A stretch of 64,000 nucleotides of DNA from Gemmatimonadales bacterium (GCA_044869265.1 JBIOXD010000005.1:4684-68683), one strand, 5' to 3'; positions 2,951 through 62,744 are shown, counted from the stretch's first letter. The notes: generated from the letters alone by a model not told the origin. Program-made: numbers and translations.

Positions 2951-4924
2951 TCAGTAGGGCTCGTCGCTGATCGCGTTAAGCGGCGGCACCGACTGATGCT
3001 CGCGCGGAACGCGTGCTTCCGACGTGACCCGGCTTCCGAGCGCCTTTCGGAAGTACGCAATCACGTCGTCGGGCCGAGTGCGCCGTACGGCAGCGAGTGC
3101 GCGCCGAACGTCCTCCGGCTCGCGATCGGCAATGAGGTCCTTCACCTGATTGGGCCGAACGCGCCGGTCGAGCTGGACGAGCTGGCGCACCACGGCGTCT
3201 TCGAACGGCACGTCGGCTGCGGGTGGGAAGCGCTCCACTCCATCACGGCCGCGCAGCACCGGTGGTTTCGGGAATCGCACGAAAATCGGCTGCGTGAAGT
3301 GTGGATGCCGCACCATGAGCTCGCCAATCGGGAGCGTCGCCAGCTTGCTCTTGGTGGCGGGGCTGAGCACCTGATACCCGGGCGTCGCAAGCTCGTCCAT
3401 GTCCATCCGGCCAAAGAGTTGCGTCCCCGCGTTGCCAACGACGCGGCGGTGTACCTGGGACCGAAACTGCTCGGCGCCGAACAGCACCAGCCCGAGGTAG
3501 CGCCCGCGCTCCGAAATATCGAGCAGCATCTTCTTCACGTAGGTCTCGGAGCCGTCGCCGGGCGCATACTTGTTGAGCTCATCGACGAACACGACGATCG
3601 CGTCGACACCCAGCTCGCGGCGCTCGAGCTGCTCCCGCAGCTTGGAGACCACGCGCGCGAACACGAGGTCCTGCCCCAACGGATCGACGTTCGCGATATC
3701 GACTACGTAGACCGTGCGGTCGGCGAATTCGTTCCACGGCAGGTCGCTGGACGGCCCGTCGTCGGTGACGAGTCCTTTGCAGCGCGTCGAGATGTTCAGC
3801 AGTCGATTACGAACCTTGCGCATCGTGGCGATGTGATGCGTGCGCCACGTGTCGCTGCGGCCGCCGGACGTGATCTCCAGGCCGTCGAAGATCGATCGGA
3901 ACAGATGATCGAGGTCGGCGAACGTCTGGACGCGGTGCGTACCGCCGAAGCCGTCGTCGAAGGTTCTGCCCAGCACGCGATCCCTGAGGAAGTCGATGAA
4001 CGCATCGGCTTTGGCGTCGATGTCGTCGCGGTTCAGCAGGACTTCGGCATAGTCGACGACCTCCTGCAGGCCCCAGGTGAGGGGCTCGACCGCCCCGATG
4101 AGATCGGCGTGGGTGCGCAGCGTGTTCAGATTGACACCGTCCGCTTTGAGCGGCGCGTAGTAGTGCACGCGCTCGAAGGGAGCGGCCGGGACACCCAGGC
4201 GTTGATACCGGTGTCGATCTTCGTCGCTCAAGTCGCCGGGCTGATCGAGAAAGCAGAGATCAGGACCTTTCACATTGAAGCAGACGGCGGCGATGCGGCC
4301 TTTGTGCGACGGGAAATGCGCGAAGATCGAGCCCAGCAGGAATTCGACCGCGCTCGTTTTCGTCGCAAGCCCCGAAACCCCTGAGATATTCAGGTGTGCG
4401 GCTTCCGGGCCGAGCAGGAAATCGGCGTCGAGGTAGACCGGCGCGTCACGGCCCGCGGACGTATACAACCCGACTGGGATAGCGGTTGGTGTCGCGGAAT
4501 ACAGGAACGCATCCATGCGAAGCGCCAGCGCAACATCGGCGTCGTCGGCGACGTACACCTGGCCGAGCGGGACCGGTTGCAACGGCTCTTCCGGCGTCTG
4601 CCGTAACACTGCGGCTGTCCAGTAGCGGATCTCTTGCCGCGTTGTCGGTGTCCCCGCCGCGCGGGTGGGATCGCCCTCCGCGCCGACCACATCGTGAAGC
4701 GGGGTGGCGAGATCGGAGTAAGCGAAGCCATCGGTCACCACGCCGTAGACCAGTCTTTCCGCTCCCTCCTCCGGGCTCCCTGCTCCAACCCTGACGATCG
4801 CACCAATTCCAATCGTTGTCTCAGTAGCCGTCCAGAAATGGAATTGATGGGGAGTCGAGGGTTTCAGCTCGGTCGCGACGACGCGACCAATCGGCGCGGG
4901 TTCCTGGCCGGAGCGCGCGATCAT
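2951..4924 (-). CDS. herA: HerA-like (DUF87/COG0433) ATPase
   Basis: Track ORF 2951..5032, start moved to the ATG that forms an ATGA overlap with the nurA stop. P-loop region LNISGVSGLATKTSAV (deviant), Walker B IVVFVDELNKYAP, then FGAEQ...VVGNAGTQLFGRM. Family assignment is by motif recognition only. Confidence 0.8.
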   Translation of the reverse strand: MIARSGQEPAPIGRVVATELKPSTPHQFHFWTATETTIGIGAIVRVGAGSPEEGAERLVYGVVTDGFAYSDLATPLHDVVGAEGDPTRAAGTPTTRQEIRYWTAAVLRQTPEEPLQPVPLGQVYVADDADVALALRMDAFLYSATPTAIPVGLYTSAGRDAPVYLDADFLLGPEAAHLNISGVSGLATKTSAVEFLLGSIFAHFPSHKGRIAAVCFNVKGPDLCFLDQPGDLSDEDRHRYQRLGVPAAPFERVHYYAPLKADGVNLNTLRTHADLIGAVEPLTWGLQEVVDYAEVLLNRDDIDAKADAFIDFLRDRVLGRTFDDGFGGTHRVQTFADLDHLFRSIFDGLEITSGGRSDTWRTHHIATMRKVRNRLLNISTRCKGLVTDDGPSSDLPWNEFADRTVYVVDIANVDPLGQDLVFARVVSKLREQLERRELGVDAIVVFVDELNKYAPGDGSETYVKKMLLDISERGRYLGLVLFGAEQFRSQVHRRVVGNAGTQLFGRMDMDELATPGYQVLSPATKSKLATLPIGELMVRHPHFTQPIFVRFPKPPVLRGRDGVERFPPAADVPFEDAVVRQLVQLDRRVRPNQVKDLIADREPEDVRRALAAVRRTRPDDVIAYFRKALGSRVTSEARVPREHQSVPPLNAISDEPY

Positions 4925-8334: not shown

Positions 8335-8356
8335 CCACAGTGTTGCAGGGTGTTCT

Positions 8357-8506
8357 AACCCCGGGCGCAAGCCCGGGGTCAACAAAACGTCCGAACCCGG
8401 TTGCTTTGGCAATCAACAGCGGCGCAGCCACCTGCCTCGGCGACAGCCTCGGCAACCAACAGAGCCAGCCACCTGCCCTGTTGACCCCGGGCTGGCGCCC
8501 TGGGTC
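8357..8506. repeat. Two related GC-rich hairpins bracketing a duplicated ~24-nt segment in a convergent intergenic spacer
   Basis: Hairpin A is accccgggc-gcaa-gcccggggt (8358-8379). Hairpin B is gaccccgggc-tggc-gccctgggtc (8483-8506). The internal direct repeat caaNcaacag..gccagccacctgcc lies at about 8411-8436 and 8454-8477. Confidence 0.6.
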
Positions 8507-8521
8507 AGAAAACCTCAAACC

Positions 8522-12627: not shown

Positions 12628-13233
12628 ATGTTCCAAGCCACGCGCCCCGGATGGATCGAGGTCATTTCAGGCGTCATGTTCAGTGGTAAGTCGGAGGAGC
12701 TCATCCGGCGCGTGCGCCGCGCGGTCATCGCCCGCAAGCGCGTGCAAGTCTTTAAATCGCACCTAGATGCGCGTTACGCCGGACTGTTCTCCGTTTCGTC
12801 GCATGATGGGGTCACCGTCGAAGCCGAGCCTGTCGACTCCGCCGAGGAAATCGCGCGCCGGCTGCGGCCCGATATCGAAGTCGTGGCCGTTGACGAAGCC
12901 CAATTTCTCGACGACGGTATCGTCGAAACCGCAAACCGTCTCGCAAACGATGGCGTACGCGTTATCCTCGCAGGCACCGATGTCGATTTTCGCGGACTCC
13001 CCTTCGGCCCGATGCCGACGCTCATGTGCATAGCCGAAGTCGTGGACAAGTTCCAGGCGATCTGCGTGGTGTGCGGCGGCTCGGCGACGCGCAATCAACG
13101 ACTCGTGAACGGCAAACCGGCGCCGTGGGATAGTCCGACGATCATGGTGGGGGGCAGGGAGAGCTATGAAGCTCGCTGCAGACACTGTCACCGCGTTCCC
13201 AGGCAGGACGAGGATCAGACCGCACTACTGTGA
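12628..13233 (+). CDS. tdk: Thymidine kinase
   Basis: GVMFSGKSEELIRR P-loop and a C-terminal CxxC...CxxC zinc ribbon (CVVCG...CRHCH). Confidence 0.95.
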   Translation: MFQATRPGWIEVISGVMFSGKSEELIRRVRRAVIARKRVQVFKSHLDARYAGLFSVSSHDGVTVEAEPVDSAEEIARRLRPDIEVVAVDEAQFLDDGIVETANRLANDGVRVILAGTDVDFRGLPFGPMPTLMCIAEVVDKFQAICVVCGGSATRNQRLVNGKPAPWDSPTIMVGGRESYEARCRHCHRVPRQDEDQTALL

Positions 13234-13306
13234 GCCGTGCGCCGTGCGCCGTGCGCTGGAAATCGACGTGCAGTCCTGCGCACGGCGAACGGCCTACGGC
13301 GCACGC
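13230..13306. repeat. Heptamer-arm hairpin element (GTGMGCC family), copy 1
   Basis: Left arm gtgagcc gtgcgcc gtgcgcc gtgcgc (13230-56). Right arm gcgcac ggcgaac ggcctac ggcgcac gcc (13278-306). The arms are about 85 percent complementary. The tdk TGA lies in the first heptamer. Confidence 0.8.
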
Positions 13307-25774: not shown

Positions 25775-25786
25775 GAGACCTCCAGC

Positions 25787-25873
25787 GTGCGCCGTGCGCC
25801 GTGAGCCGTGAGCCGTGAGCCGGACCGCACAGCGGGGCAGATTCCCGGCGCACGGCTTACGGCGCACGGCGAC
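25787..25873. repeat. Heptamer-arm hairpin element (GTGMGCC family), copy 2
   Basis: Left arm gtgcgcc x2 plus gtgagcc x3 (25787-821). Right arm ggcgcac ggcttac ggcgcac ggcgac (25848-73). The right arm overlaps the last codons and TAA of the DUF1028 gene. Confidence 0.8.
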
Positions 25874-26867
25874 CGCTTTTTCTGTTCTTGCGAATATCAT
25901 CCAGCACCACCCGGTCAATCTTCCCATCCATTCTCACGCGCACGTCGTAGTTCTCCCAGTACATGAAATTCGCGAGCGCGGTGAGGAACGCCTCGTTCAG
26001 CGACGGCTGCGGCGCGGCTAGCCACTTTTGCGGCTGGTTTTTCGGCTCGGCGACGAGGATGGCTTCCAACTCCCGCTGCAGGGCCGGCGTGATCGCGATC
26101 AGATCGGCGGAATCGGTTGTGAAGAAGTAGAGTTTGTGCAGCTCATACAGTCGCTGCAGCTCCTTGATAGGGTCGGGGGCGTCGTAGACCCGAATGTCGA
26201 TGTAGCGATCGGTGGTGCCCAGGTAGCCCGCGTTGGCACGGACGACGAGCAGCGCTGCCGACTGCATCCCACGCTTGTCGCCGCCCCCTGCCTGCCCCGC
26301 CACGAGCGCCGCAAGCAAACGATCGGCCAGCGACCCCCGCGCCCGCTCGAACGTCTCGGCCATGTTCCGGACGGTGGCATCCGAGACCATGATGTTGGCC
26401 TGGGCCGCGTAATTGCGGCCGGTGATCATTTTGCCTTTGCCGCCCGTCTGCCCATCCGTCCCGCCGCCCGTGCGCCCACCCGCCCAGTCGAACGTCGAAT
26501 CCCCCGTCCAGCTCGCTGCATTGCCACGCGCATCCACCATGCCGACCTGTCGCTGTGATGGGCGCTCATCCCCGCGCATGATGACGCGCATCGCTTCCGG
26601 CGCCGTCGCGCCGCGCGCAATGAGCTCGAGTCCCTTTTCGCCATAGTCCGTGTTGCTGAGCGATTGCGTCGCGACGGCGCCGACGCCGGCGCGCGCCCAC
26701 GGGACGAGACCGCCGACATTCGGGAATTTCGATTGCACCGCAACGCCGAGGTCGCCGGTGACGGAATCGTAGGCGACGATGCTGTAGGTGTGAGCGCGTT
26801 TCAGAAAATCAGGTGGGGGAGGCTGTGGAGGCTGCTGGAGGTGCTGCAGCAGAACTAACAGGAGCAC
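25857..26867 (-). CDS. DUF1028 family (Ntn-hydrolase-like) protein with a C-terminal helical domain
   Basis: HTYSIVAYDSVTGDLGVAVQSKFPNVG matches the DUF1028 N-terminal signature. Confidence 0.8.
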   Translation of the reverse strand: MLLLVLLQHLQQPPQPPPPDFLKRAHTYSIVAYDSVTGDLGVAVQSKFPNVGGLVPWARAGVGAVATQSLSNTDYGEKGLELIARGATAPEAMRVIMRGDERPSQRQVGMVDARGNAASWTGDSTFDWAGGRTGGGTDGQTGGKGKMITGRNYAAQANIMVSDATVRNMAETFERARGSLADRLLAALVAGQAGGGDKRGMQSAALLVVRANAGYLGTTDRYIDIRVYDAPDPIKELQRLYELHKLYFFTTDSADLIAITPALQRELEAILVAEPKNQPQKWLAAPQPSLNEAFLTALANFMYWENYDVRVRMDGKIDRVVLDDIRKNRKSGRRAP

Positions 26868-43427: not shown

Positions 43428-44741
43428 ATGGCTACAAAAGTCCACATGGAAGCCCTGTCGCCCACGATGGAAGAGGGGCGCCTCGTAAAGTGGACTAAGA
43501 AGGAAGGCGACGCGGTGAAGTCGGGCGACACACTGGCCGAAGTCGAGACGGATAAGGCAGTGATGGAGCTCGTGGCGCGAACCGACGGTCAACTCCTCAA
43601 GGTCTTGGTGCAGGAGGGGACTACGGTACCCGTCGGGAATATCGTGGCGTGGATTGGGAAGCCTGGCGAGAAGGTTAACGGAGATGGGGCGGGCGCGCCG
43701 GCGGCGAAGAGTGCATCACGGCCCGAACAGCGTGCGCCGTCCACCGTGCGCAGTGCGCCGGAACCCGCTTCAAAACCAACAGCTGCCGCAAAGGCCACCT
43801 CTGCCCCCGCCCCGGCTCCTGCACCGCGTGCTCCGGCTGCGGCACCCGGCGACGCAACGCGGGTCAAGGCATCCCCGCTAGCTCGCCGAATTGCGAGGGA
43901 CGCGGGTGTGGACCTGAAGCTGGTCCAAGGATCGGGTCCCGGCGGGCGAGTCATCAAGCGTGATGTCGAGGGGGCCCCAGCGGCAGCAGCATCGGCACCT
44001 GCATCCGCGCCTGCACCTGCAGTCCCGCGCACGGCGTACGGCGCACCGCGCACGCCTTATGAAGACGTCCCCCTCACCCAGATCCGAAAGACCATCGCCA
44101 AACGGCTCGCGGCATCGATCGGCCCCATCCCGCACTTCTTCCTCACCTCCGAAGTCGACATGGAGCGGGCGGCGGAGGCCCGTGAGGCACTCAACAAGCA
44201 ACTGGGCGAAGAGGGCGGCAAGATCTTTTTCAACGACATCATCATCAAGGCGGTCGCGCTCGCCCTGGTGCAGCATCGCGCGTGCAACGCCTGGTTCCAG
44301 GACGATCATATCCGCTACTGGAACGAGGTCCACATCGGGATGGCCGTCGCGATCGAGGATGGCTTGATCACACCGGTGATTCGCAACGCCGACATGAAAT
44401 CGCTGCGGGAGATCGGCGCGGAAGCCCGTGAGCTGGCGGGCAGAGCGCGCACCCGGCGCCTCAAGCCGGAAGAGTACACCGGCGCGACGTTCAGCGTCTC
44501 GAACCTCGGCATGTTCGATATCGATCAGTTCACGGCCGTGATCAACCCCCCCGAAGCGGGGATCGTCGCGATCGGCAGCATCGTCCCCAAAGCCGTTCCC
44601 GACGGCGAGCGCGTCATGGTGCGGCGCCGGATGCGGCTGACGATGAGCTGCGACCACCGCGTGATCGACGGGGCGACGGGCGCCGTCTTCCTGAAAACGC
44701 TGAAGCAGATGCTGGAGAATCCGCTGGCAATGGTGCTATAA
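43428..44741 (+). CDS. pdhC: Dihydrolipoamide acetyltransferase (E2)
   Basis: Lipoyl domain EVETDKAVMEL, Ala/Pro linker, PSBD, and the catalytic DHRVIDG. Confidence 0.95.
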   Translation: MATKVHMEALSPTMEEGRLVKWTKKEGDAVKSGDTLAEVETDKAVMELVARTDGQLLKVLVQEGTTVPVGNIVAWIGKPGEKVNGDGAGAPAAKSASRPEQRAPSTVRSAPEPASKPTAAAKATSAPAPAPAPRAPAAAPGDATRVKASPLARRIARDAGVDLKLVQGSGPGGRVIKRDVEGAPAAAASAPASAPAPAVPRTAYGAPRTPYEDVPLTQIRKTIAKRLAASIGPIPHFFLTSEVDMERAAEAREALNKQLGEEGGKIFFNDIIIKAVALALVQHRACNAWFQDDHIRYWNEVHIGMAVAIEDGLITPVIRNADMKSLREIGAEARELAGRARTRRLKPEEYTGATFSVSNLGMFDIDQFTAVINPPEAGIVAIGSIVPKAVPDGERVMVRRRMRLTMSCDHRVIDGATGAVFLKTLKQMLENPLAMVL

Positions 44742-44808
44742 CGTTGGACCGTTGGACGGTCGGACGGTTGGACGGTACCACACGGTCCAACGGTCCAACA
44801 TTCCAACG
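44742..44808. repeat. Octamer-arm hairpin element
   Basis: Left arm cgttggac cgttggac ggtcggac ggttggac. Loop ggtaccacac. Right arm ggtccaac ggtccaac attccaac. It fills the E2-lpdA spacer. Confidence 0.85.
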
Positions 44809-46224: not shown

Positions 46225-46643
46225 ACGACGACGCGCCGAAGGACCCGCTCGCGATCGGTCTGGGCTCGCTCGGTGGCGGAGCCGGGTTCGGCAGTGCGTT
46301 CATGACCATCTCACAGATCGCGCTCCGCCTGCTCCAGGATCAGTTCGAGCGAATTGGATACCAGATACTGACTGCCGGTGTGATCGCCGCGGTGGGAGTC
46401 GGGGGTGCCTACGGCTGGTATCGCAGCTTCGACTTGGACAACGTCTGGCAGCGTGGGGTGATTGCGGTGCTCGCCTCCGTCGGTGCGCTCCTGATCGGAT
46501 TCATGGCAGCTCCCCTGGATGGACTCTTCGGAATCGCCGGCATGCTCGTTTGGCTGGCGCTCAACATCGCGTTCGGTGTCGCCTCCGCTCGATGGGCCAT
46601 GAAAGGCAGGGGGAAAGAGGGAAGCGGGACGGGTGTGGCATGA
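46221..46643 (+). CDS. Hypothetical membrane protein
   Basis: Three predicted TM helices. TTGA overlap with lpdA and ATGA overlap with lipB suggest it is translated. Confidence 0.55.
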   Translation: MNDDAPKDPLAIGLGSLGGGAGFGSAFMTISQIALRLLQDQFERIGYQILTAGVIAAVGVGGAYGWYRSFDLDNVWQRGVIAVLASVGALLIGFMAAPLDGLFGIAGMLVWLALNIAFGVASARWAMKGRGKEGSGTGVA

Positions 46644-47359
46644 GCTCACTTGAAATCGTCGAAGCGGGACTCGTCCCGTACGGGGAAGCTCTGGAGTGGC
46701 AACGCCGGCTCGCCGACGATCGGATTGGCGGACGACTCTCACATGATGTGTTGCTGTTGGTGGAGCACCCTCCCGTCGTAACCCTTGGGCGCAACTCGAA
46801 GGCCGCACATCTCCTGCGCCCCGCTGGGATCGATGTGTTCGAGGTTGAACGAGGCGGGGACGTGACGTTTCATGGGCCCGGCCAGCTCGTCGGATATCCC
46901 ATCCTTGACTTGAATGGCTACAAGCGGGACCTGCACTGGTACCTGCGCACGCTAGAGCAAGCGTTGATCGACGGACTTGGCCTGCTCGGGCTTCCCGCGG
47001 AACGCAATCCCGGATACACCGGCGTGTGGACGCGCGGGAAGAAGATTGCGAGCATTGGCATTCACGTGAAGCAGTGGGTGACATGGCACGGGTTCGCGCT
47101 CAACGTCAGCACCGATCTCGAGGATTTCGACCGAATCGTTCCCTGCGGCATTCAGGGTGTGGTGATGACATCCGTGGAACGGGAGACGTGCAACGGGCAA
47201 CGTGCAACGGGAGACGAGAAACGGGAAACGGTGTGGCGGGAGAGTGTCGCGGCGGTCATTCGAGGATTTCAAAGCGCCTTTGCCGTGAATCCCATTCCGA
47301 AGAATGGACCCCGTGAGTCACTGCGCTTAAGCGCAGCGTCGGATCGGGCCCACGCTTAA
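46640..47359 (+). CDS. lipB: Octanoyltransferase LipB, with an in-frame heptamer-array insertion near the C-terminus
   Basis: Start MSSLEIVEAG. VLLLVEHPPVVTLGR, RGGDVTFHGPGQLVGYPI, GIHVKQWVTWHGFALN. Confidence 0.9.
   Translation: MSSLEIVEAGLVPYGEALEWQRRLADDRIGGRLSHDVLLLVEHPPVVTLGRNSKAAHLLRPAGIDVFEVERGGDVTFHGPGQLVGYPILDLNGYKRDLHWYLRTLEQALIDGLGLLGLPAERNPGYTGVWTRGKKIASIGIHVKQWVTWHGFALNVSTDLEDFDRIVPCGIQGVVMTSVERETCNGQRATGDEKRETVWRESVAAVIRGFQSAFAVNPIPKNGPRESLRLSAASDRAHA
47174..47229. repeat. Eight direct tandem heptamers (GNGNAAC type) inside lipB
   Basis: gtggaac gggagac gtgcaac gggcaac gtgcaac gggagac gagaaac gggaaac. I found no inverted arm. Confidence 0.8.
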
Positions 47360-50614: not shown

Positions 50615-51892
50615 ATGACATCAGGCGAACCATCGCAACGCCCCAGCCGGGCGCCCATGTCGGGCCGGGCAATCGTCCAGAACCAGTTCGAACGGGCGGC
50701 CGATCTCATCAACCTCGAAGCGTACATGCGGAAGATCCTCATGTCGCCATTCCGCGAGGTTCAGGTCGAGGTACCCGTGCGCATGGACGATGGCCGCATC
50801 GAGGTGTTCACCGGCTACCGCATCCAGCACAACGGGGCGCGGGGGCCCTGCAAGGGCGGCATCCGCTACCATCCAGAGGCCGATCACGACGAGGTGCTCG
50901 GCCTCGCGGCCATCATGACGTGGAAGACCGCCCTGATGGACATCCCGTTCGGCGGCGCCAAAGGCGGCGTCACGGTGGATCCCAAGAAACTCTCCAAGCT
51001 CGAGTTGGAGCGCCTCACCCGGCGCTTCACGCAGCGCATCGCGATCGTCCTGGGTCCCTACCGCGACATCCCCGCCCCGGACGTCAATACGAATGCGCAG
51101 GTGATGGCGTGGATTCTCGATGAATACTCCAGCCGGCAGGGCTACAGCCCCGCTGTCGTCACCGGCAAGCCCGTCGCCCTGGGAGGCTCCCTGGGGCGCG
51201 AGGAAGCGACCGGCCGGGGTGTCATGTACGTGATGCAGGAGTACTCGCGCGACTTCGGCGTCAGCCTCAAGGGCGGCCGCGTCGTCATTCAAGGATTCGG
51301 GAATGTGGGCAGCCATCTCGCCCGGCTGCTCGACAGCGAGGCGGGCGCGAAAGTCGTCGCGGTGAGCGACGTATCAGGCGGCATTTACAACGACACCGGG
51401 CTCGACATCCCGGGGCTGTTGGCACACTCCGCTCAGGGCAAGCCGGTATCGGAGTGGTCAGGCGGAAAGCGCATCACCAACGACGAGCTCTGGACGATCC
51501 CGTGCGAATGGCTCGTGCCGGCGGCGCTCGGCGGCGTCATCACCAAGGAAGCCAACGCCACAACGGTCGACTGCAAGGTCGTGGTCGAGGGCGCCAATGA
51601 GCCCACGACACCGACCGCCGATCGGATTCTCGAACAGCGCGGCATTGCGGTGATCCCCGACTTTCTCGCCAACGCCGGCGGCGTCACGGTCAGCTACTAT
51701 GAGTGGGCCCAGAATCTTCAGCAGTATCGATGGACTCACGAGCAAGTCAATCGGGAGCTCAAGGCCACCATCACGAAGGCCTACGCATCGGTGCGGGATC
51801 TGGCGCGCGAGAAGAAAGTGACGTTTCGAACCGCAGCCTACGGTATCGCTCTCCAGCGCGTCGCGGATGCTGAGCGACTGCGTGGAAACTAG
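50615..51892 (+). CDS. gdh: Glu/Leu/Phe/Val dehydrogenase (glutamate dehydrogenase)
   Basis: GPCKGGIRYHP, the catalytic region PFGGAKGG, and the NAD(P) fold IQGFGNVG. Confidence 0.95.
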   Translation: MTSGEPSQRPSRAPMSGRAIVQNQFERAADLINLEAYMRKILMSPFREVQVEVPVRMDDGRIEVFTGYRIQHNGARGPCKGGIRYHPEADHDEVLGLAAIMTWKTALMDIPFGGAKGGVTVDPKKLSKLELERLTRRFTQRIAIVLGPYRDIPAPDVNTNAQVMAWILDEYSSRQGYSPAVVTGKPVALGGSLGREEATGRGVMYVMQEYSRDFGVSLKGGRVVIQGFGNVGSHLARLLDSEAGAKVVAVSDVSGGIYNDTGLDIPGLLAHSAQGKPVSEWSGGKRITNDELWTIPCEWLVPAALGGVITKEANATTVDCKVVVEGANEPTTPTADRILEQRGIAVIPDFLANAGGVTVSYYEWAQNLQQYRWTHEQVNRELKATITKAYASVRDLAREKKVTFRTAAYGIALQRVADAERLRGN

Positions 51893-51897
51893 GCCGG

Positions 51898-52078
51898 TCA
51901 AAAAACGAAGGCGGCGGTCGGGCGGTCGATGCTAGCTCCAGCGCTAACGGCGGCTCTTCGGGCTTGGGAAGTCAACCCGTACAAGTTCATCACGCGGGCA
52001 TGTCCTGGTGACCTTGTACACGGCGATGGTAAGGTCATCGCATGCTTTCCACGCATGCAGTCTCTCGTAGGGCATCAT
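51898..52078 (-). pseudogene. Frameshifted, 3'-truncated four-helix-bundle (23S rRNA IVS-type) protein gene
   Basis: Hand translation gives MMPYERLHAWKACDDLTIAVYKVTRTCPRDE, then a one-base shift to LYGLTSQARRAAVSAGASI. It then runs into the GACCGCC repeat and stops. This matches the N-terminal half of the family (..W..A..L...IY..T..FP..E.YGLTSQ.RRAAVS...NIAEG). Local GC is visibly lower. Confidence 0.7.
51910..51927. repeat. GACCGCC-type repeat, inverted copy (left arm)
   Basis: ggcggcggtcgggcggtc is the reverse complement of gaccgcccgaccgccgcc. Confidence 0.8.
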
Positions 52079-52137
52079 GAGACGAACCTGTCGAATTGTA
52101 GACTACGGACGGCACCCTATTTATGCTGGCAGAATCA

Positions 52138-52223
52138 TTTGACCGCCGCATGGGCAGTTGACCCGTCCGACCGCCGCCGTTGCATTTGACCGCCCGACCG
52201 CCGCAGTCGCAGTTTGACCGCCC
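52138..52223. repeat. GACCGCC-type repeat array (right arm)
   Basis: tttgaccgccgca..ttgacccgtccgaccgccgcc..tttgaccgcccgaccgccgcag..tttgaccgccc. Confidence 0.8.
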
Positions 52224-53338
52224 TATTCATTCATTCCCGCACGTGAGTACAGCGCTCGGTAGGGATCGCGATCCGGTTGGGTAAAGACGCGAATCTGTAT
52301 TGCTCTCACAGTCTCGGCGATATCCGTGTTGTTCTGCAGGTAAATCTCATCGAACAGATTCAAATCCATCCGGTACAGCCGCTCCGCGACGACGACGGCG
52401 TTGTTGAGCGGTGCCTGGGCGAACCAGCGCCAATCGTACGTCTCCAGCGACTGCCCTACGGCCCCACGAAACTGTTCGCGCGCCCAGCCAAACAAGATCT
52501 CGCGCACTTGCTCGAGGCGGTGTGCCGTGAGGGGTTCGCTGTAGGCGGAATCGAGTCGCCGGGCGAGCTCCGCATAGAACACATCGAGCGTGCGCTCGTC
52601 GCGCCACCGAGCCGCCGCCCGGCGGGCATCAACCGTGTCGCTCCGCGAGCGAAAGAAGGCCTCCGCACCGCGGTACCCGACAAAGCTCGCAAAGCTTTCG
52701 TTGAAGGGCGTCTGGCTTTTCACGTAGAGGGTGTTGTGGGCCAGCTCGTGGATCACCGTCGCAACGAGCTCCATGGTGTCGCGGCTCATCGCGGTCGAGA
52801 ACAAGGGATCGCTGAGATAGCCGAGCGTCGAGAAGGCGCCGGATGTGCGCAGAAACACATCCAGCCCCTGTTGCTCGAGGCCGCGCGCTTCGCGGCGCGC
52901 GTACGAGGCCTTGAAGAATCCTTTGTACGGGACGACGCCGACGATCGGGTACCGCCACGTGACCTCGCGCAATCGCTCGCGCCGGCTGGCCGAGAGCACC
53001 AGCAGCAAGGTGTCCCGGCCCACATCGACATAGCTCGTATAGGTCTTTCCCACCGCGAGACCGAGCGAGTCGCCGGCAAAGGTGCGGGCGGCCTGCACCA
53101 GCCGGAGGCGCTGGCGCAGCGGCGCCGGGGTCGCCGAATCGGCGATGAGCTTTTCGATCGACCGCCTTCGCAACAGCAACCGAGCCTCTTCGATGCCCGC
53201 GCGCGCGATGTACCGCGCGTCGGCGCTGATCAGCAGGAGGAAAGCGATCGCGCCAAAGGCCGCGCCGGCCGCGATCGCGGCGACCCGCTTGAGCAGACGT
53301 CCCCAGCGAGGCCGGGCGCGCTCGACTAGGGCGTCCAC
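52223..53338 (-). CDS. Predicted zinc aminopeptidase (COG4324/DUF2265-like, HExxH)
   Basis: VIHELAHNTLYV...FNESFASFVG. There is no ATG near the TM anchor; the GTG at 53338 (VDALVERARPRW...) is my preferred start. Confidence 0.75.
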   Translation of the reverse strand: MDALVERARPRWGRLLKRVAAIAAGAAFGAIAFLLLISADARYIARAGIEEARLLLRRRSIEKLIADSATPAPLRQRLRLVQAARTFAGDSLGLAVGKTYTSYVDVGRDTLLLVLSASRRERLREVTWRYPIVGVVPYKGFFKASYARREARGLEQQGLDVFLRTSGAFSTLGYLSDPLFSTAMSRDTMELVATVIHELAHNTLYVKSQTPFNESFASFVGYRGAEAFFRSRSDTVDARRAAARWRDERTLDVFYAELARRLDSAYSEPLTAHRLEQVREILFGWAREQFRGAVGQSLETYDWRWFAQAPLNNAVVVAERLYRMDLNLFDEIYLQNNTDIAETVRAIQIRVFTQPDRDPYRALYSRAGMNE

Positions 53339-54288
53339 CGCAGCCCCACCCGGTGCGTCCCCCCCATCAGGTCGTAGGACCGGAATGCGTAATCCATCGC
53401 GAGCCGGCCGAGCACTACTCCGCCGCCGAATGTCCAGGGAGACGCGTCCGTGATCGCCGGACGCGTGGAGAAACCGACTCGCCCCACGATACCCACGCCG
53501 CTCGCCACCACACCGGCTTCGAGCCCCTGGATGAGGACCGCACTCTGATCCCTCGTCCACTGCCCTTCGAGCGTCGTGAGGAGACGATACGTGCCCTGTG
53601 GATCCGTATAGTTGAGGGTCAAACCCGCGCGCGTGCGGCGCGGCAACAACGCGCCCGCTCCCAGATCGCCGCCGAGATTCTGGACGCTCACACCAAAGGC
53701 CATGATATCGAACACAGCGACCGCCACGCCGATATCGCCGGCCCAGGCATCGCTCATTTCGGCCCCGATCTGCTGGCGGTTGTACTTGCCCGTCACGCCC
53801 AGCGCAGCGAATCCGCGGCGGTACACGAGAGAAGTGACCGCGAGCGCCTCGTAGGGGTGGAACGACGCGCCGGTGGGCATTCCGCGCCGACCGCCGGTCG
53901 CAGGGTCCGGCACGATCTCAGCCTCGGTCCCGTAATCGAGCGCCTGCGCCCCGACGCCCCAAGTGAAGCGCGAGACCCGCAGCGCCATCGCCGCGGTGGA
54001 AATAGCCGTTCCTTCGAGATACGGCTCGTACGAACCCTCGAGACCGAGGTGGCGAATCGTCGCGATGCCCGCGGGATTGGCGAACAGAGCACCGGCGTCA
54101 CCGACGAGAGCAGCGCCCGCGCCGCCCATCGCCGCGGCCCGCGTCGAGCCGGAGAGTGCGGTGAGGATCGACCCTTCGCTCTGCGCGGGCACAGTGGCCC
54201 CCGGCCACGCAATCAGGAGTAGCACCGTGATAGTCGTGACCGCCCGACCGCCGCAGGTGCCTTTTGACCGCGTGACCGCCGATTTCAT
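53326..54288 (-). CDS. PorV/PorQ-like outer-membrane beta-barrel protein
   Basis: Signal peptide, then STRAAAMGGAGAALVGDAGALFANPAGIA and alternating beta-strand pattern to the C-terminal RVGLRWTP. ATGA overlap with the upstream gene. Confidence 0.7.
   Translation of the reverse strand: MKSAVTRSKGTCGGRAVTTITVLLLIAWPGATVPAQSEGSILTALSGSTRAAAMGGAGAALVGDAGALFANPAGIATIRHLGLEGSYEPYLEGTAISTAAMALRVSRFTWGVGAQALDYGTEAEIVPDPATGGRRGMPTGASFHPYEALAVTSLVYRRGFAALGVTGKYNRQQIGAEMSDAWAGDIGVAVAVFDIMAFGVSVQNLGGDLGAGALLPRRTRAGLTLNYTDPQGTYRLLTTLEGQWTRDQSAVLIQGLEAGVVASGVGIVGRVGFSTRPAITDASPWTFGGGVVLGRLAMDYAFRSYDLMGGTHRVGLRWTP
54236..54281. repeat. GACCGCC-type repeat, direct copy inside the 5' end of the PorV-like CDS
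   Basis: gtgaccgcccgaccgccgcaggtgccttttgaccgcgtgaccgccg. It shares the 19-mer gaccgcccgaccgccgcag with 52188-52206. Confidence 0.8.
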
Positions 54289-61877: not shown

Positions 61878-62744
61878 TTGACGCATGTCTTGGAAGTCCG
61901 GTTCAAAGGGAACCGGCGCGAATATTTCAGCTGGCCGTCCGAAGACGCTCTCCGCGTTGACGATGGCGTCATCGTAGAGGTCGAGCGCGGGCAGGACTTT
62001 GGCGTGGTCTCCGCTGTGGGGGCCGTCGCTGCGAAGAAGTGCGAGCGCTGTGGTAACTGTGGGGCCTCGGGCCTGGGGCCTGGGGACTCGGGCAGTTCCC
62101 AGGCCCAAGGCCCCAGCCCCGAGGCCCTCAGGCCAGTTCTTCGCAAGGCCACTGACGAAGACCGCAAGACCGCCACACAGCTGCGCGAAAACGACGAAGA
62201 AGTGCGCCGCGTTGTGCGCGATCGCGTCCGCCAGCATTCCCTCCCGATGAAAGTCTCCGACGCCGAATGGCAGTGGGACAAGCGCAAGCTGACGATCTAT
62301 TTCACCGCCGAGCAGCGCGTGGACTTCCGGGCGCTGGTGCGCGACCTGGCCGGCTTGTTCCGCACGCGCATCGAGCTGCGGCAGATCGGCGCGCGCGACG
62401 AGGCCCGGCGCCTCGATGGCATCGGCCGCTGCGGCCGGCAGCTCTGCATCTCGAGCTGGCTGCCGGAAGGACGGCCCGTCAGCCTGTCGCTCGCCAAGGC
62501 GCAAGGGCTGTCGCTCAATCCCGTGCAGATCTCCGGTCCCTGCGGGCGGCTGTTATGCTGCCTGCACTACGAGCACGATTTCTACGTGGAGCAGCGCAAG
62601 CGCTTTCCCAAAGAAGGGAAAACGGTCCGCACGTCCGAGGGGATCGAGCGCGTCGTGTCGGTCGACATCTTTCGCGAACGCGTGATGCTCCGTTCCGACG
62701 CCGGGACGACGCGCGTCGTCACACTCGAACAGCTGCACGCGTAG
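61878..62744 (+). CDS. PSP1 domain protein (YaaT/RicT-like)
   Basis: VRFKGNRREYF, and the PSP1 core FRTRIELRQIGARDEARRLDGIGRCGRQLC...GPCGRLLCCL. Confidence 0.9.
   Translation: MTHVLEVRFKGNRREYFSWPSEDALRVDDGVIVEVERGQDFGVVSAVGAVAAKKCERCGNCGASGLGPGDSGSSQAQGPSPEALRPVLRKATDEDRKTATQLRENDEEVRRVVRDRVRQHSLPMKVSDAEWQWDKRKLTIYFTAEQRVDFRALVRDLAGLFRTRIELRQIGARDEARRLDGIGRCGRQLCISSWLPEGRPVSLSLAKAQGLSLNPVQISGPCGRLLCCLHYEHDFYVEQRKRFPKEGKTVRTSEGIERVVSVDIFRERVMLRSDAGTTRVVTLEQLHA
62061..62134. repeat. G-rich/C-rich heptamer-arm hairpin inserted in frame in the PSP1 gene
   Basis: Left arm ggggcct cgggcct ggggcct ggggact cgggcag. Loop ttc. Right arm ccaggcc caaggcc ccagccc cgaggcc ctcaggcc. Confidence 0.85.

Follow-up and report, generated by a model that had tools for sequence, protein, structure and literature searches.

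In this study, the spacer between two convergent genes was investigated in a 64-kb stretch of DNA from a Gemmatimonadales bacterium (GCA_044869265.1 JBIOXD010000005.1:4684-68683; the whole 64,000-nt stretch is hereafter called the window). The spacer separates a glutamate dehydrogenase gene (gdh) from an aminopeptidase gene, and it is almost certainly the recently decayed remnant of a cassette of approximately 620 nt that exactly fills the space between the two stop codons. The cassette carries a gene for a 23S rRNA intervening sequence (IVS) protein, a four-helix bundle of the family PF05635/TIGR02436 (hereafter IVP), between inverted arms of short tandem repeats. As a pseudogene remnant the locus is ordinary. 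Its architecture is not, and from its sequence it would be classed as an IVS-like cassette outside rRNA. Intact copies indicate that this architecture is the normal packaging of the sampled PF05635 subfamily outside rRNA in at least 14 phyla. The best overall explanation, to which we assign a probability of approximately 0.6, combines a decayed cassette, a putative IVS-like RNA stem and DNA-level instability of the arms.

To our knowledge, no function has been assigned to PF05635/TIGR02436, a very large family, and the only contexts in which it has been studied are the 23S rRNA IVS and its relative Avd in diversity-generating retroelements (DGRs). Its members are often misannotated as 'S23 ribosomal protein'. 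The present interpretation would make rRNA IVSs a special case of a general cassette, namely a gene in the loop of a short-tandem-repeat stem, and would offer a candidate common explanation for the short tandem arrays of Coxiella, Geobacter and cyanobacteria. IVP function would become testable as binding of IVPs to their own arms and cutting by RNase III. Annotators could recognise cassettes and their remnants, and the arms would no longer be taken for terminators, regulator sites or assembly artefacts.

Structure of the spacer and its arms

The gdh gene (PF00208/PF02812) ends on the plus strand with TAG at 51890-51892, and the aminopeptidase gene (PF10023) lies on the opposite strand with its stop codon (cta) at 52223-52225. 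The 330 nt between the two codons (51893-52222) agree with the length given in an earlier interpretation made from the sequence alone (the sequence-only reading). That reading had described a perfect inverted repeat of 51910-51927 and 52188-52205; the repeat is present, and 17 of its 18 bases match. It extends to 38 nt per arm (51890-51927 and 52188-52225, 84% complementary), with the gdh and aminopeptidase stop codons pairing as its outermost bases; among all inverted repeats of the window whose arms are no more than 800 nt apart, it is the longest. The right arm, previously described as four GACCGCC-type units, comprises instead three tandem compound units of 27-28 nt (52141-52223; TRF score 92) that read GACCGCCGC-N8-9-TTGACCGCCC on the plus strand and hold five exact GACCGCC heptamers and one degenerate copy. 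The left arm is a single inverted unit of the same type with an additional octamer. The exact 15-mer GACCGCCSSACCGCC occurs three times in the 64 kb, namely in both arms and at 54238. The lower GC content reported between the arms was also found (0.52-0.57 versus 0.62-0.69 in the flanks).

Read on the minus strand, which is the sense of the IVP gene, the layout is three GGCGGTC-type units of 27-28 nt, a 62-nt leader, IVP codons 1-51 and 1.3 inverted units. The upstream arm accordingly lies at 52141-52222 and the leader, from this arm to the start codon, at 52079-52140. The pseudogene follows at 51928-52078 (ATG at 52078-52076, codons 52-116 deleted), and the downstream arm at 51893-51927 consists of a 27-nt unit (51893-51919; GACCGCCGCCTTCGTTTTTTGACCGGC on the minus strand) and the octamer GACCGCCC (51920-51927). 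A deletion junction (51927/51928) marks the inner edge of the downstream arm. The arms close the predicted folds of the spacer on both strands (z = -6.2 and -6.9) and that of the whole intact element of locus L086 described below (z = -6.1); a defining IVS feature, a predicted stem formed by inverted ends with the IVP open reading frame (ORF) in its loop, is present in both. The insertion is not in an rRNA gene: the flanks are gdh and the aminopeptidase gene, and Rfam gave no match at the gathering threshold in the whole window or at E <= 1 in the spacer. A tRNA scan also gave no match, and an exact-sequence look-up of the gdh product found no entry.

The sequence-only reading had called the spacer the longest non-coding gap in the window. 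A crude ORF filter left uncovered stretches of the window that are longer than the spacer; the one inspected (46225-47316) contains genes. Another inverted repeat in the window (43732/44027, 275 nt between arms) was rejected as an element because it is coding sequence: it lies in the part of an E2 acyltransferase gene that specifies the Ala/Pro linker and the subunit-binding domain.

The cargo gene and its lesions

The minus-strand ORF starts at 52078 (MMPYERLHAWKACDDLTIAVYKVTRTCPRDEL), reads YGLTSQARRAAVSAGASI after a one-base shift, and then enters the arm. The frame-repaired product of 59 residues reached 43.1 bits with the PF05635 profile, where it aligns to positions 1-47 of 106 (cut-off 33.8), and 38.8 bits with TIGR02436 (cut-off 24), so the earlier assignment of the cargo to a decayed IVS-type four-helix-bundle gene is upheld by scores above both cut-offs. 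The window copy has no complete four-helix reading frame, as it reaches profile positions 1-47 of 106 and carries a frameshift and a deletion. No second IVP copy was detected in the window with a hidden Markov model (HMM) built from 75 family members. A protein search with a 50-aa fragment returned 12 short matches, which led to loci L001-L005; given the small candidate set, this number carries little information on the family.

An intact counterpart is provided by a soil-metagenome contig (Ga0075418_10022386, locus L086), which is almost base-for-base identical to the window region and contains a cassette of 617 nt. This cassette has five upstream units, a leader near-identical to that of the window, a 116-codon ORF and two downstream units. 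Compared with it, the window carries three lesions: an extra T at 51983/51984, which puts the sequence out of frame after PRDE-L; a deletion of 230 nt that runs from codon 51 and ends within the first downstream unit; and an upstream array shorter by two units. The one-base frameshift after PRDE and the truncation at the left arm, both of which the sequence-only reading had proposed, were confirmed by this comparison. Judged from the two sequences, it is nearly certain that this deletion, the frameshift and the loss of two units produced the window pseudogene. In the closest species-level genome, the Gemmatimonadales metagenome-assembled genome (MAG) L009 (amino-acid identity of 96.7% for gdh and 93.5% for the aminopeptidase), the cassette is intact and has six upstream units and one downstream unit.

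The intact L086 protein scored 102.9 bits against PF05635 and 99 bits against TIGR02436, and its isoelectric point (pI) is 9.6. It matches PDB 2gsc (XCC0516, a pentameric four-helix bundle; E = 8e-22) and, weakly, the PHROG 'Avd protein of DGR' (E = 5e-5). The quaternary structure of XCC0516 is a pentamer (as cited in PMC10053308 and PMC4990558).

The cassette at the gdh-aminopeptidase locus of relatives

Eighty-nine loci with an orthologous gdh were compared, of which 80 are metagenome contigs, eight come from MAGs and ENA and one is the window; 83 of the 89 were classifiable, with both gene ends placeable. Intact cassettes, in spacers of 535-691 nt, had the IVP gene on the strand opposite to gdh in 16 loci and on the gdh strand in 11, and all 27 filled loci have an uninterrupted ORF and inverted short-repeat arms, which the sequence-only reading had set as a test for intact copies. 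Five loci, namely L101, the window, L004, L143 and L142, are decayed, with spacers of 388, 330, 278, 212 and 55 nt and a different deletion in each; the 55-nt remnant, in L142, consists of arms only. The other 51 loci are empty, with a spacer of -7 to +6 nt, overlapping stop codons (CTAG or TTAG) and no hairpin. Empty loci have no hairpin, and arms and gene are gained and lost together; it is therefore nearly certain that the arms are cassette parts and not a pre-existing terminator. The comparison shows that the cassette is a unit of gain, loss and inversion. It is found either way round, and it decays via deletions that end in or near an arm.

The ratio of non-synonymous to synonymous substitution rates (dN/dS) was approximately 0.04 for the IVP gene and 0.025 for the adjoining gdh segment. 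The 22 N-terminal codons shared by the window and L004 differ by ten synonymous and zero non-synonymous changes. By these substitution patterns, the IVP gene is under purifying selection and functional.

Filled, decayed and empty states were thoroughly interspersed on a neighbour-joining tree of the flanks. Some pairs of loci have IVPs that are 94% identical and flanks that are 82-87% identical, including one pair with opposite orientations; in other pairs the flanks are 93-94% identical and the IVPs 65-77%. The two flanks are also poorly correlated with each other (r = 0.2), so homologous recombination among related strains is enough for the patchy pattern, and active transposition is not claimed. 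No target-site duplication was found when filled and empty alleles were compared; the two classes of allele differ at the few bases adjoining the arms. The proximal upstream unit stays with the gene in both orientations.

Inverted tandem-repeat arms around IVP genes in other phyla

A scan of one genome per species with an IVP alignment as the query yielded 80 loci, the best approximately 30 of which are from Gemmatimonadota. The other loci are from Desulfobacterota, Omnitrophota, Elusimicrobiota, Bacteroidota, Verrucomicrobiota, Chloroflexota, Pseudomonadota, Acidobacteriota, Synergistota, Planctomycetota, Abditibacteriota, Nitrospirota, Methylomirabilota and two candidate phyla. The scan retrieved a large subfamily with an ELYGLTSQ-RRAA motif, and our claim of generality applies to this subfamily. 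Conserved 23S rRNA motifs were absent from L001-L165, so all of these are non-rRNA copies.

Arms were evaluated by aligning the 300 nt upstream of each ORF to the reverse complement of the 250 nt downstream. Inverted-repeat scores of at least 30 were obtained at 58 of 73 IVP positions and, in identical windows shifted by 1.5-2.3 kb, at 1 of 275 control positions (Fisher p = 1e-50); several loci below the threshold still have recognisable arms. Most loci, in at least 14 phyla, have inverted arms in which a 7-10-nt unit is repeated in tandem from 3 to more than 20 times, so that intact copies elsewhere pass the test set by the sequence-only reading. The repeat unit is locus-specific (e.g. GGCGGTAG, GGGAAGTC, TGACGGG, GGGTGAT, TAGATGT, GAAGGTA, TAAGCYN), and paralogues of one genome differ in their arm unit. 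Periods are mainly 7, 8 and 10 nt and multiples of these. The downstream arm starts at a median of 6 nt past the stop codon, the leader has a median length of 61 nt, and the 5' arm contains more G than C in 52 of 61 loci. A copy number fitted to the IVP pentamer was considered and rejected, as arms range from approximately 3 to 29 copies with no fixed five.

A blind search for inverted pairs of tandem arrays in approximately 0.9 Mb gave loop lengths with peaks below 100 nt and at 360-550 nt, and an IVP gene had already been assigned to the majority of pairs in the upper peak. Among the pairs in or near this peak that were not linked beforehand and were inspected, four hold IVP copies (L021, L080, L081 and L001) and one (L020) holds a pseudopilin-like gene. 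In the latter (L020, 632-1044), phased arms of GGCGGTAC type surround a gene with a prepilin-type N-terminus (...GTTLLELLVVLVILG), and the 5' arm encodes the leader peptide.

Cultured cyanobacteria provide further examples. The IVP gene NPUN_RS34290 on plasmid pNPUN01 of Nostoc punctiforme is bracketed by GGGTGTG/A and CTACACC heptamers, and a plasmid copy in Nostoc PCC 7120 has five CTCTGCC repeats downstream, its upstream side being cut by an insertion sequence (IS) element. On pNPUN01 (L168), additional GGGTGTR arrays lie inside the 3' part of the annotated ORF and 150 nt past the downstream arm (985-1018 and 1272-1305), which suggests nested or repeated hairpins.

Other arrays near IVP genes were unusually extended. 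In an Abditibacteriales MAG (L074, 1871-2859), arms of 20-29 octamer copies surround one IVP gene; in a Terriglobales MAG (L054, 2362-2965), seven successive ATCAGCC arrays, approximately 100 nt apart, lie upstream of one; and in L001 a 17-copy TCGGGGG array (3790-3909) is located 1 kb upstream of one. Three otherwise full-length IVP genes (L001 5001-5400, L001 6664-7180 and L005 189-560) have one in-frame stop each (TAG, TAA and TAA), and these stops cluster within a common mid-protein stretch of approximately 15 codons; they may reflect decay or the selection of short database hits. A 339-residue ORF with no Pfam match lies between two IVP cassettes on a 419-kb contig (L001, 5430-6449). In four distant Gemmatimonadota (L022, L031, L033 and L037), an IVP cassette is located 1-1.7 kb from another glutamate dehydrogenase gene, 38-44% identical to that of the window, which could be a coincidence or a remnant of synteny.

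Proposed role of the arms and alternative explanations

By analogy with rRNA IVSs, the arms may act as the closing stem of an RNA, a role to which we give roughly even odds. In a read-through transcript from the upstream gene, the G/purine-rich 5' array would pair with the C/pyrimidine-rich 3' array, and this pairing would tolerate register shifts because both arrays are tandem repeats. The resulting long stem would close off the cassette like the stem of the 23S rRNA IVS, where RNase III cuts, and cutting of the stem would separate the IVP message from the host message. The cassette would thereby be harmless at gene ends or rRNA helix tips. At the DNA level, the inverted tandem arrays would make the cassette unstable through gain and loss of units, inversion and arm-ending deletions. 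Several points count in favour of an RNA stem: the downstream arm follows closely on the stop codon, the arms close the predicted folds (z = -6.1 to -6.9), the 5' arm is G-rich in 52 of 61 loci, and the Coxiella IVS offers an experimental precedent, with its RNase III site at the first heptamer repeat. No sigma-70-type promoter was found in the intact L086 cassette in a scan limited to sigma-70-type consensus sites, and a cassette with no promoter-like site inside it would fit expression by read-through from the upstream gene.

Several observations weigh against an RNA stem. RNase III processing outside rRNA is argued from analogy, and the promoter scan covers the sigma-70-type consensus only. 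Among arm mismatches, G:U exceeds A:C only weakly (150 versus 113, p = 0.026; per locus not significant), and approximately 17% of the aligned arm positions are unpaired. Nor does complementarity from one arm to the other extend to the A-rich spacers within the 28-nt units of the gdh locus. The conserved element is an array of the GGCGGTC motif rather than exact pairing, so a protein-binding array would look equal. The rule that the G-rich arm comes first holds on both strands, because the arms form an inverted repeat, and so it does not identify the transcribed strand.

A somewhat unlikely alternative is that the cassette is a DNA-level element, in which the arms are protein-binding arrays comparable to iterons or terminal inverted repeats. 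The protein that binds them would be either the basic IVP pentamer or a host factor such as IHF/HU. The arrays would serve insertion, inversion, excision or maintenance of the cassette, with IVP cassettes as autonomous and cargo-less phased hairpins as non-autonomous forms. Such an element would account for the polymorphism in presence and orientation at one site, interspersed on the flank tree; for IVP histories decoupled from the flanks in both directions (94% versus 82-87%, and 65-77% versus 93-94%); for the proximal upstream unit that accompanies the gene in both orientations; for the conservation of a motif rather than of exact pairing; and for the IVP pI of 9.6. A parallel is offered by the paired hepta- and octanucleotide sites of Geobacter metallireducens, which have been proposed to be regulator-binding and which IS110-family elements adjoin (PMC2700814). 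However, the cassette contains no transposase or recombinase, filled sites show no target-site duplication, and no near-identical copies were found at unrelated sites (best case 80% identity). Paralogues with different arm units in one genome imply that there is no common terminal sequence, and homologous recombination, as judged from the flank correlation of r = 0.2, can explain the patchiness without transposition. The class of transposons, IS elements and miniature inverted-repeat transposable elements was rejected: inverted ends are present, but their unit varies by locus, and neither a target-site duplication nor a transposase in the cassette was found. A search for recently transposed copies, with high IVP identity and unrelated flanks, found none (best 80%), and the PADLOC defence models gave no match.

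It is more improbable still that the arms are a host structure, namely a bidirectional terminator or 3'-end stabiliser in whose loop the IVP gene has lodged as a passenger. The arms do abut both stop codons, the downstream units present a C-rich half-stem followed by a T-run with one terminator-like site scored, and in Gemmatimonadales numerous copies are located at the 3' ends of genes or in convergent-gene spacers. However, 51 relatives have neither spacer nor hairpin and their stop codons overlap, so gdh and the aminopeptidase gene need no such structure, and the arms appear and disappear together with the IVP gene. Identical architecture surrounds IVP genes in other contexts and phyla and inside rRNA, the single terminator-like site equals the number expected in shuffled sequence, and the loop of the supposed terminator contains a gene. 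Chance, in the form of a low-complexity GC-rich spacer with a spurious ORF, has a negligible probability. Short repeats and ORFs are frequent in GC-rich genomes, but the arms are the longest local inverted repeat in the window, the HMM scores exceed curated cut-offs, and the intact orthologue in L086 is identical except for three lesions; together with the arm control test (58/73 versus 1/275), this orthologue rules out a chance origin.

Cargo-less hairpins in the window

The sequence-only reading had proposed that other hairpins in the window may be cargo-less relatives of such IVS-like elements. Four phased-repeat hairpins are present, with arms of 3-5 tandem heptamers or octamers: at 13230-13304 (period 7 nt, loop 13 nt), 25784-25877 (period 7 nt, loop 24 nt), 44740-44802 (period 8 nt, loop 21 nt) and 62062-62134 (period 7 nt, loop 4-6 nt). 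They are located between co-directional genes or at gene 5' ends, and not between convergent genes. The unit of the spacer arms, including the exact 17-mer GACCGCCCGACCGCCGC, recurs approximately 2 kb away as a solo array on the minus strand (54236-54282), within the 5' signal-peptide coding part of an outer-membrane-type ORF (53326-54288).

In 44 relatives, the segment corresponding to 54236-54282 is 48-144 nt long, and its length is a multiple of three in 43. It is usually a very stable octamer-repeat hairpin (-50 to -78 kcal/mol), over which the parts of the signal peptide are distributed: its Arg-rich N-region is encoded by the 5' arm, its hydrophobic core by the loop and its C-region by the 3' arm. 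The units (e.g. GGCGGTTR, GACGGCCK and GACGGGCT) differ among close relatives, and the arms stay complementary; short hairpin-less alleles occur in L165, L147, L163 and L087.

The proposed kinship between hairpins and cassettes is plausible, and the link is not established. In its favour are the similar period and polarity, the arms-only remnant in L142 and the recurrence of the unit 2 kb away. In L025, a common decamer is shared by the IVP arms and a hairpin 3 kb off, the sole such case among the loci compared. On the other side, the units of cargo-less hairpins and nearby IVP arms were not significantly alike (n = 7, p = 0.10), an IVP gene was found at the signal-peptide hairpin site in 0 of 44 relatives, no relative has a compact cargo-less hairpin at the gdh-aminopeptidase site, and the gene contexts do not match. 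We consider it unlikely that PF05635 cassettes and cargo-less phased hairpins form one autonomous/non-autonomous superfamily, in which the IVP pentamer would be a trans-acting factor that recognises or propagates tandem-repeat hairpins. If true, such a superfamily would explain locus-specific hairpins of 7-10-nt units at rRNA helix tips (as IVSs that have or lack an ORF), gene 3' ends and operon spacers, as well as in-frame hairpins inside signal-peptide and prepilin-leader coding regions, and it might extend to cyanobacterial short tandem repeats and to the Geobacter paired sites.

Comparison with known repeat elements and IVSs

The short tandemly repeated repetitive (STRR) heptamers of heterocystous cyanobacteria were reportedly described by Mazel et al. 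in 1990. STRRs are defined as dispersed repeat families, and we know of no link between them and the four-helix-bundle family. The cassette arms resemble STRRs as intergenic tandem heptamers, and the IVP genes of Nostoc punctiforme (GGGTGTG/A and CTACACC) and PCC 7120 (CTCTGCC) are so flanked. Correia/NEMIS and REP/BIME elements are small inverted-repeat elements at gene ends that form hairpins when transcribed, and Correia elements are cut by RNase III. Unlike these elements, which are high-copy, share their sequence and have no ORF (with a TA duplication in Correia), the cassette has arms that are specific to each locus and surround a conserved gene, and it shows no target duplication.

The parallel with rRNA IVSs drawn by the sequence-only reading proved to be detailed. 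In Coxiella burnetii, the 23S IVS has three or four tandem GACAGAT heptamers before the S23p ORF, their number being strain-variable, and the RNase III site is at the first heptamer repeat (PMC4990558). ORF-bearing 23S IVSs also occur in Leptospira, Brucella and Xanthomonas (listed in PMC4990558). The cassette shares with the Coxiella IVS the PF05635 cargo, the position of the ORF within a loop whose stem consists of the inverted ends, the tandem heptamers ahead of the ORF and a decay-prone ORF. It differs in being placed between two protein-coding genes rather than in helix 45 of 23S rRNA, and in having arms that are much longer arrays with a compound unit of 27-28 nt. Coxiella S23p has been judged dispensable, whereas the cassette gene is under strong purifying selection. 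RNase III excision from the transcript is established for the Coxiella IVS (PMC4990558); for the cassette it is proposed by analogy.

The DGR accessory protein Avd is homologous to the four-helix-bundle family (PMC10053308), and the IVP is, like Avd, a small and basic four-helix-bundle protein with remote sequence similarity to it. With gdh and the aminopeptidase gene as neighbours and a single ORF inside, the cassette lacks the adjacent reverse transcriptase of a DGR and leaves no space for a template/variable repeat pair, for which no explicit search was made. No convincing YxDD-type (reverse-transcriptase) ORF was found near arm-less IVP copies.

In Geobacter metallireducens, Aklujkar et al. 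(2009, PMC2700814) recorded 24 + 21 + 8 'paired sites on opposite strands'. Each has 3-5 tandem hepta- or octanucleotide repeats, and they were interpreted as binding sites of an unidentified global regulator; some have IS110-family elements beside them. The arms resemble these sites in their opposite-strand pairs of 3-5 tandem repeats of 7-9 nt, their variable spacing and their location mostly at gene ends. In contrast to the locus-specific unit and defined cargo found here, the Geobacter sites were reported as families of many copies in which each class has a single consensus, and were taken for IHF/HU-type binding sites. The text consulted states no link to four-helix-bundle genes (PMC2700814). 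The literature searched, to which subscription journals did not belong, contained no text tying such arrays to four-helix-bundle genes in general.

Other repeats in the window

A second convergent-gene spacer of approximately 187 nt (8349-8514) contains a 36-nt inverted repeat that is 89% complementary. Its arms are small GC hairpins (CCCCGGGC-GCAA-GCCCGGGG) and not tandem-repeat arms. A tandem AACGGGA array of 7.7 copies (47173-47231), for which periods of 14 and 28 were scored as well, falls within the C-terminal portion of a long ORF (46550-47359) that contains LipB-like (octanoyltransferase) sequence.

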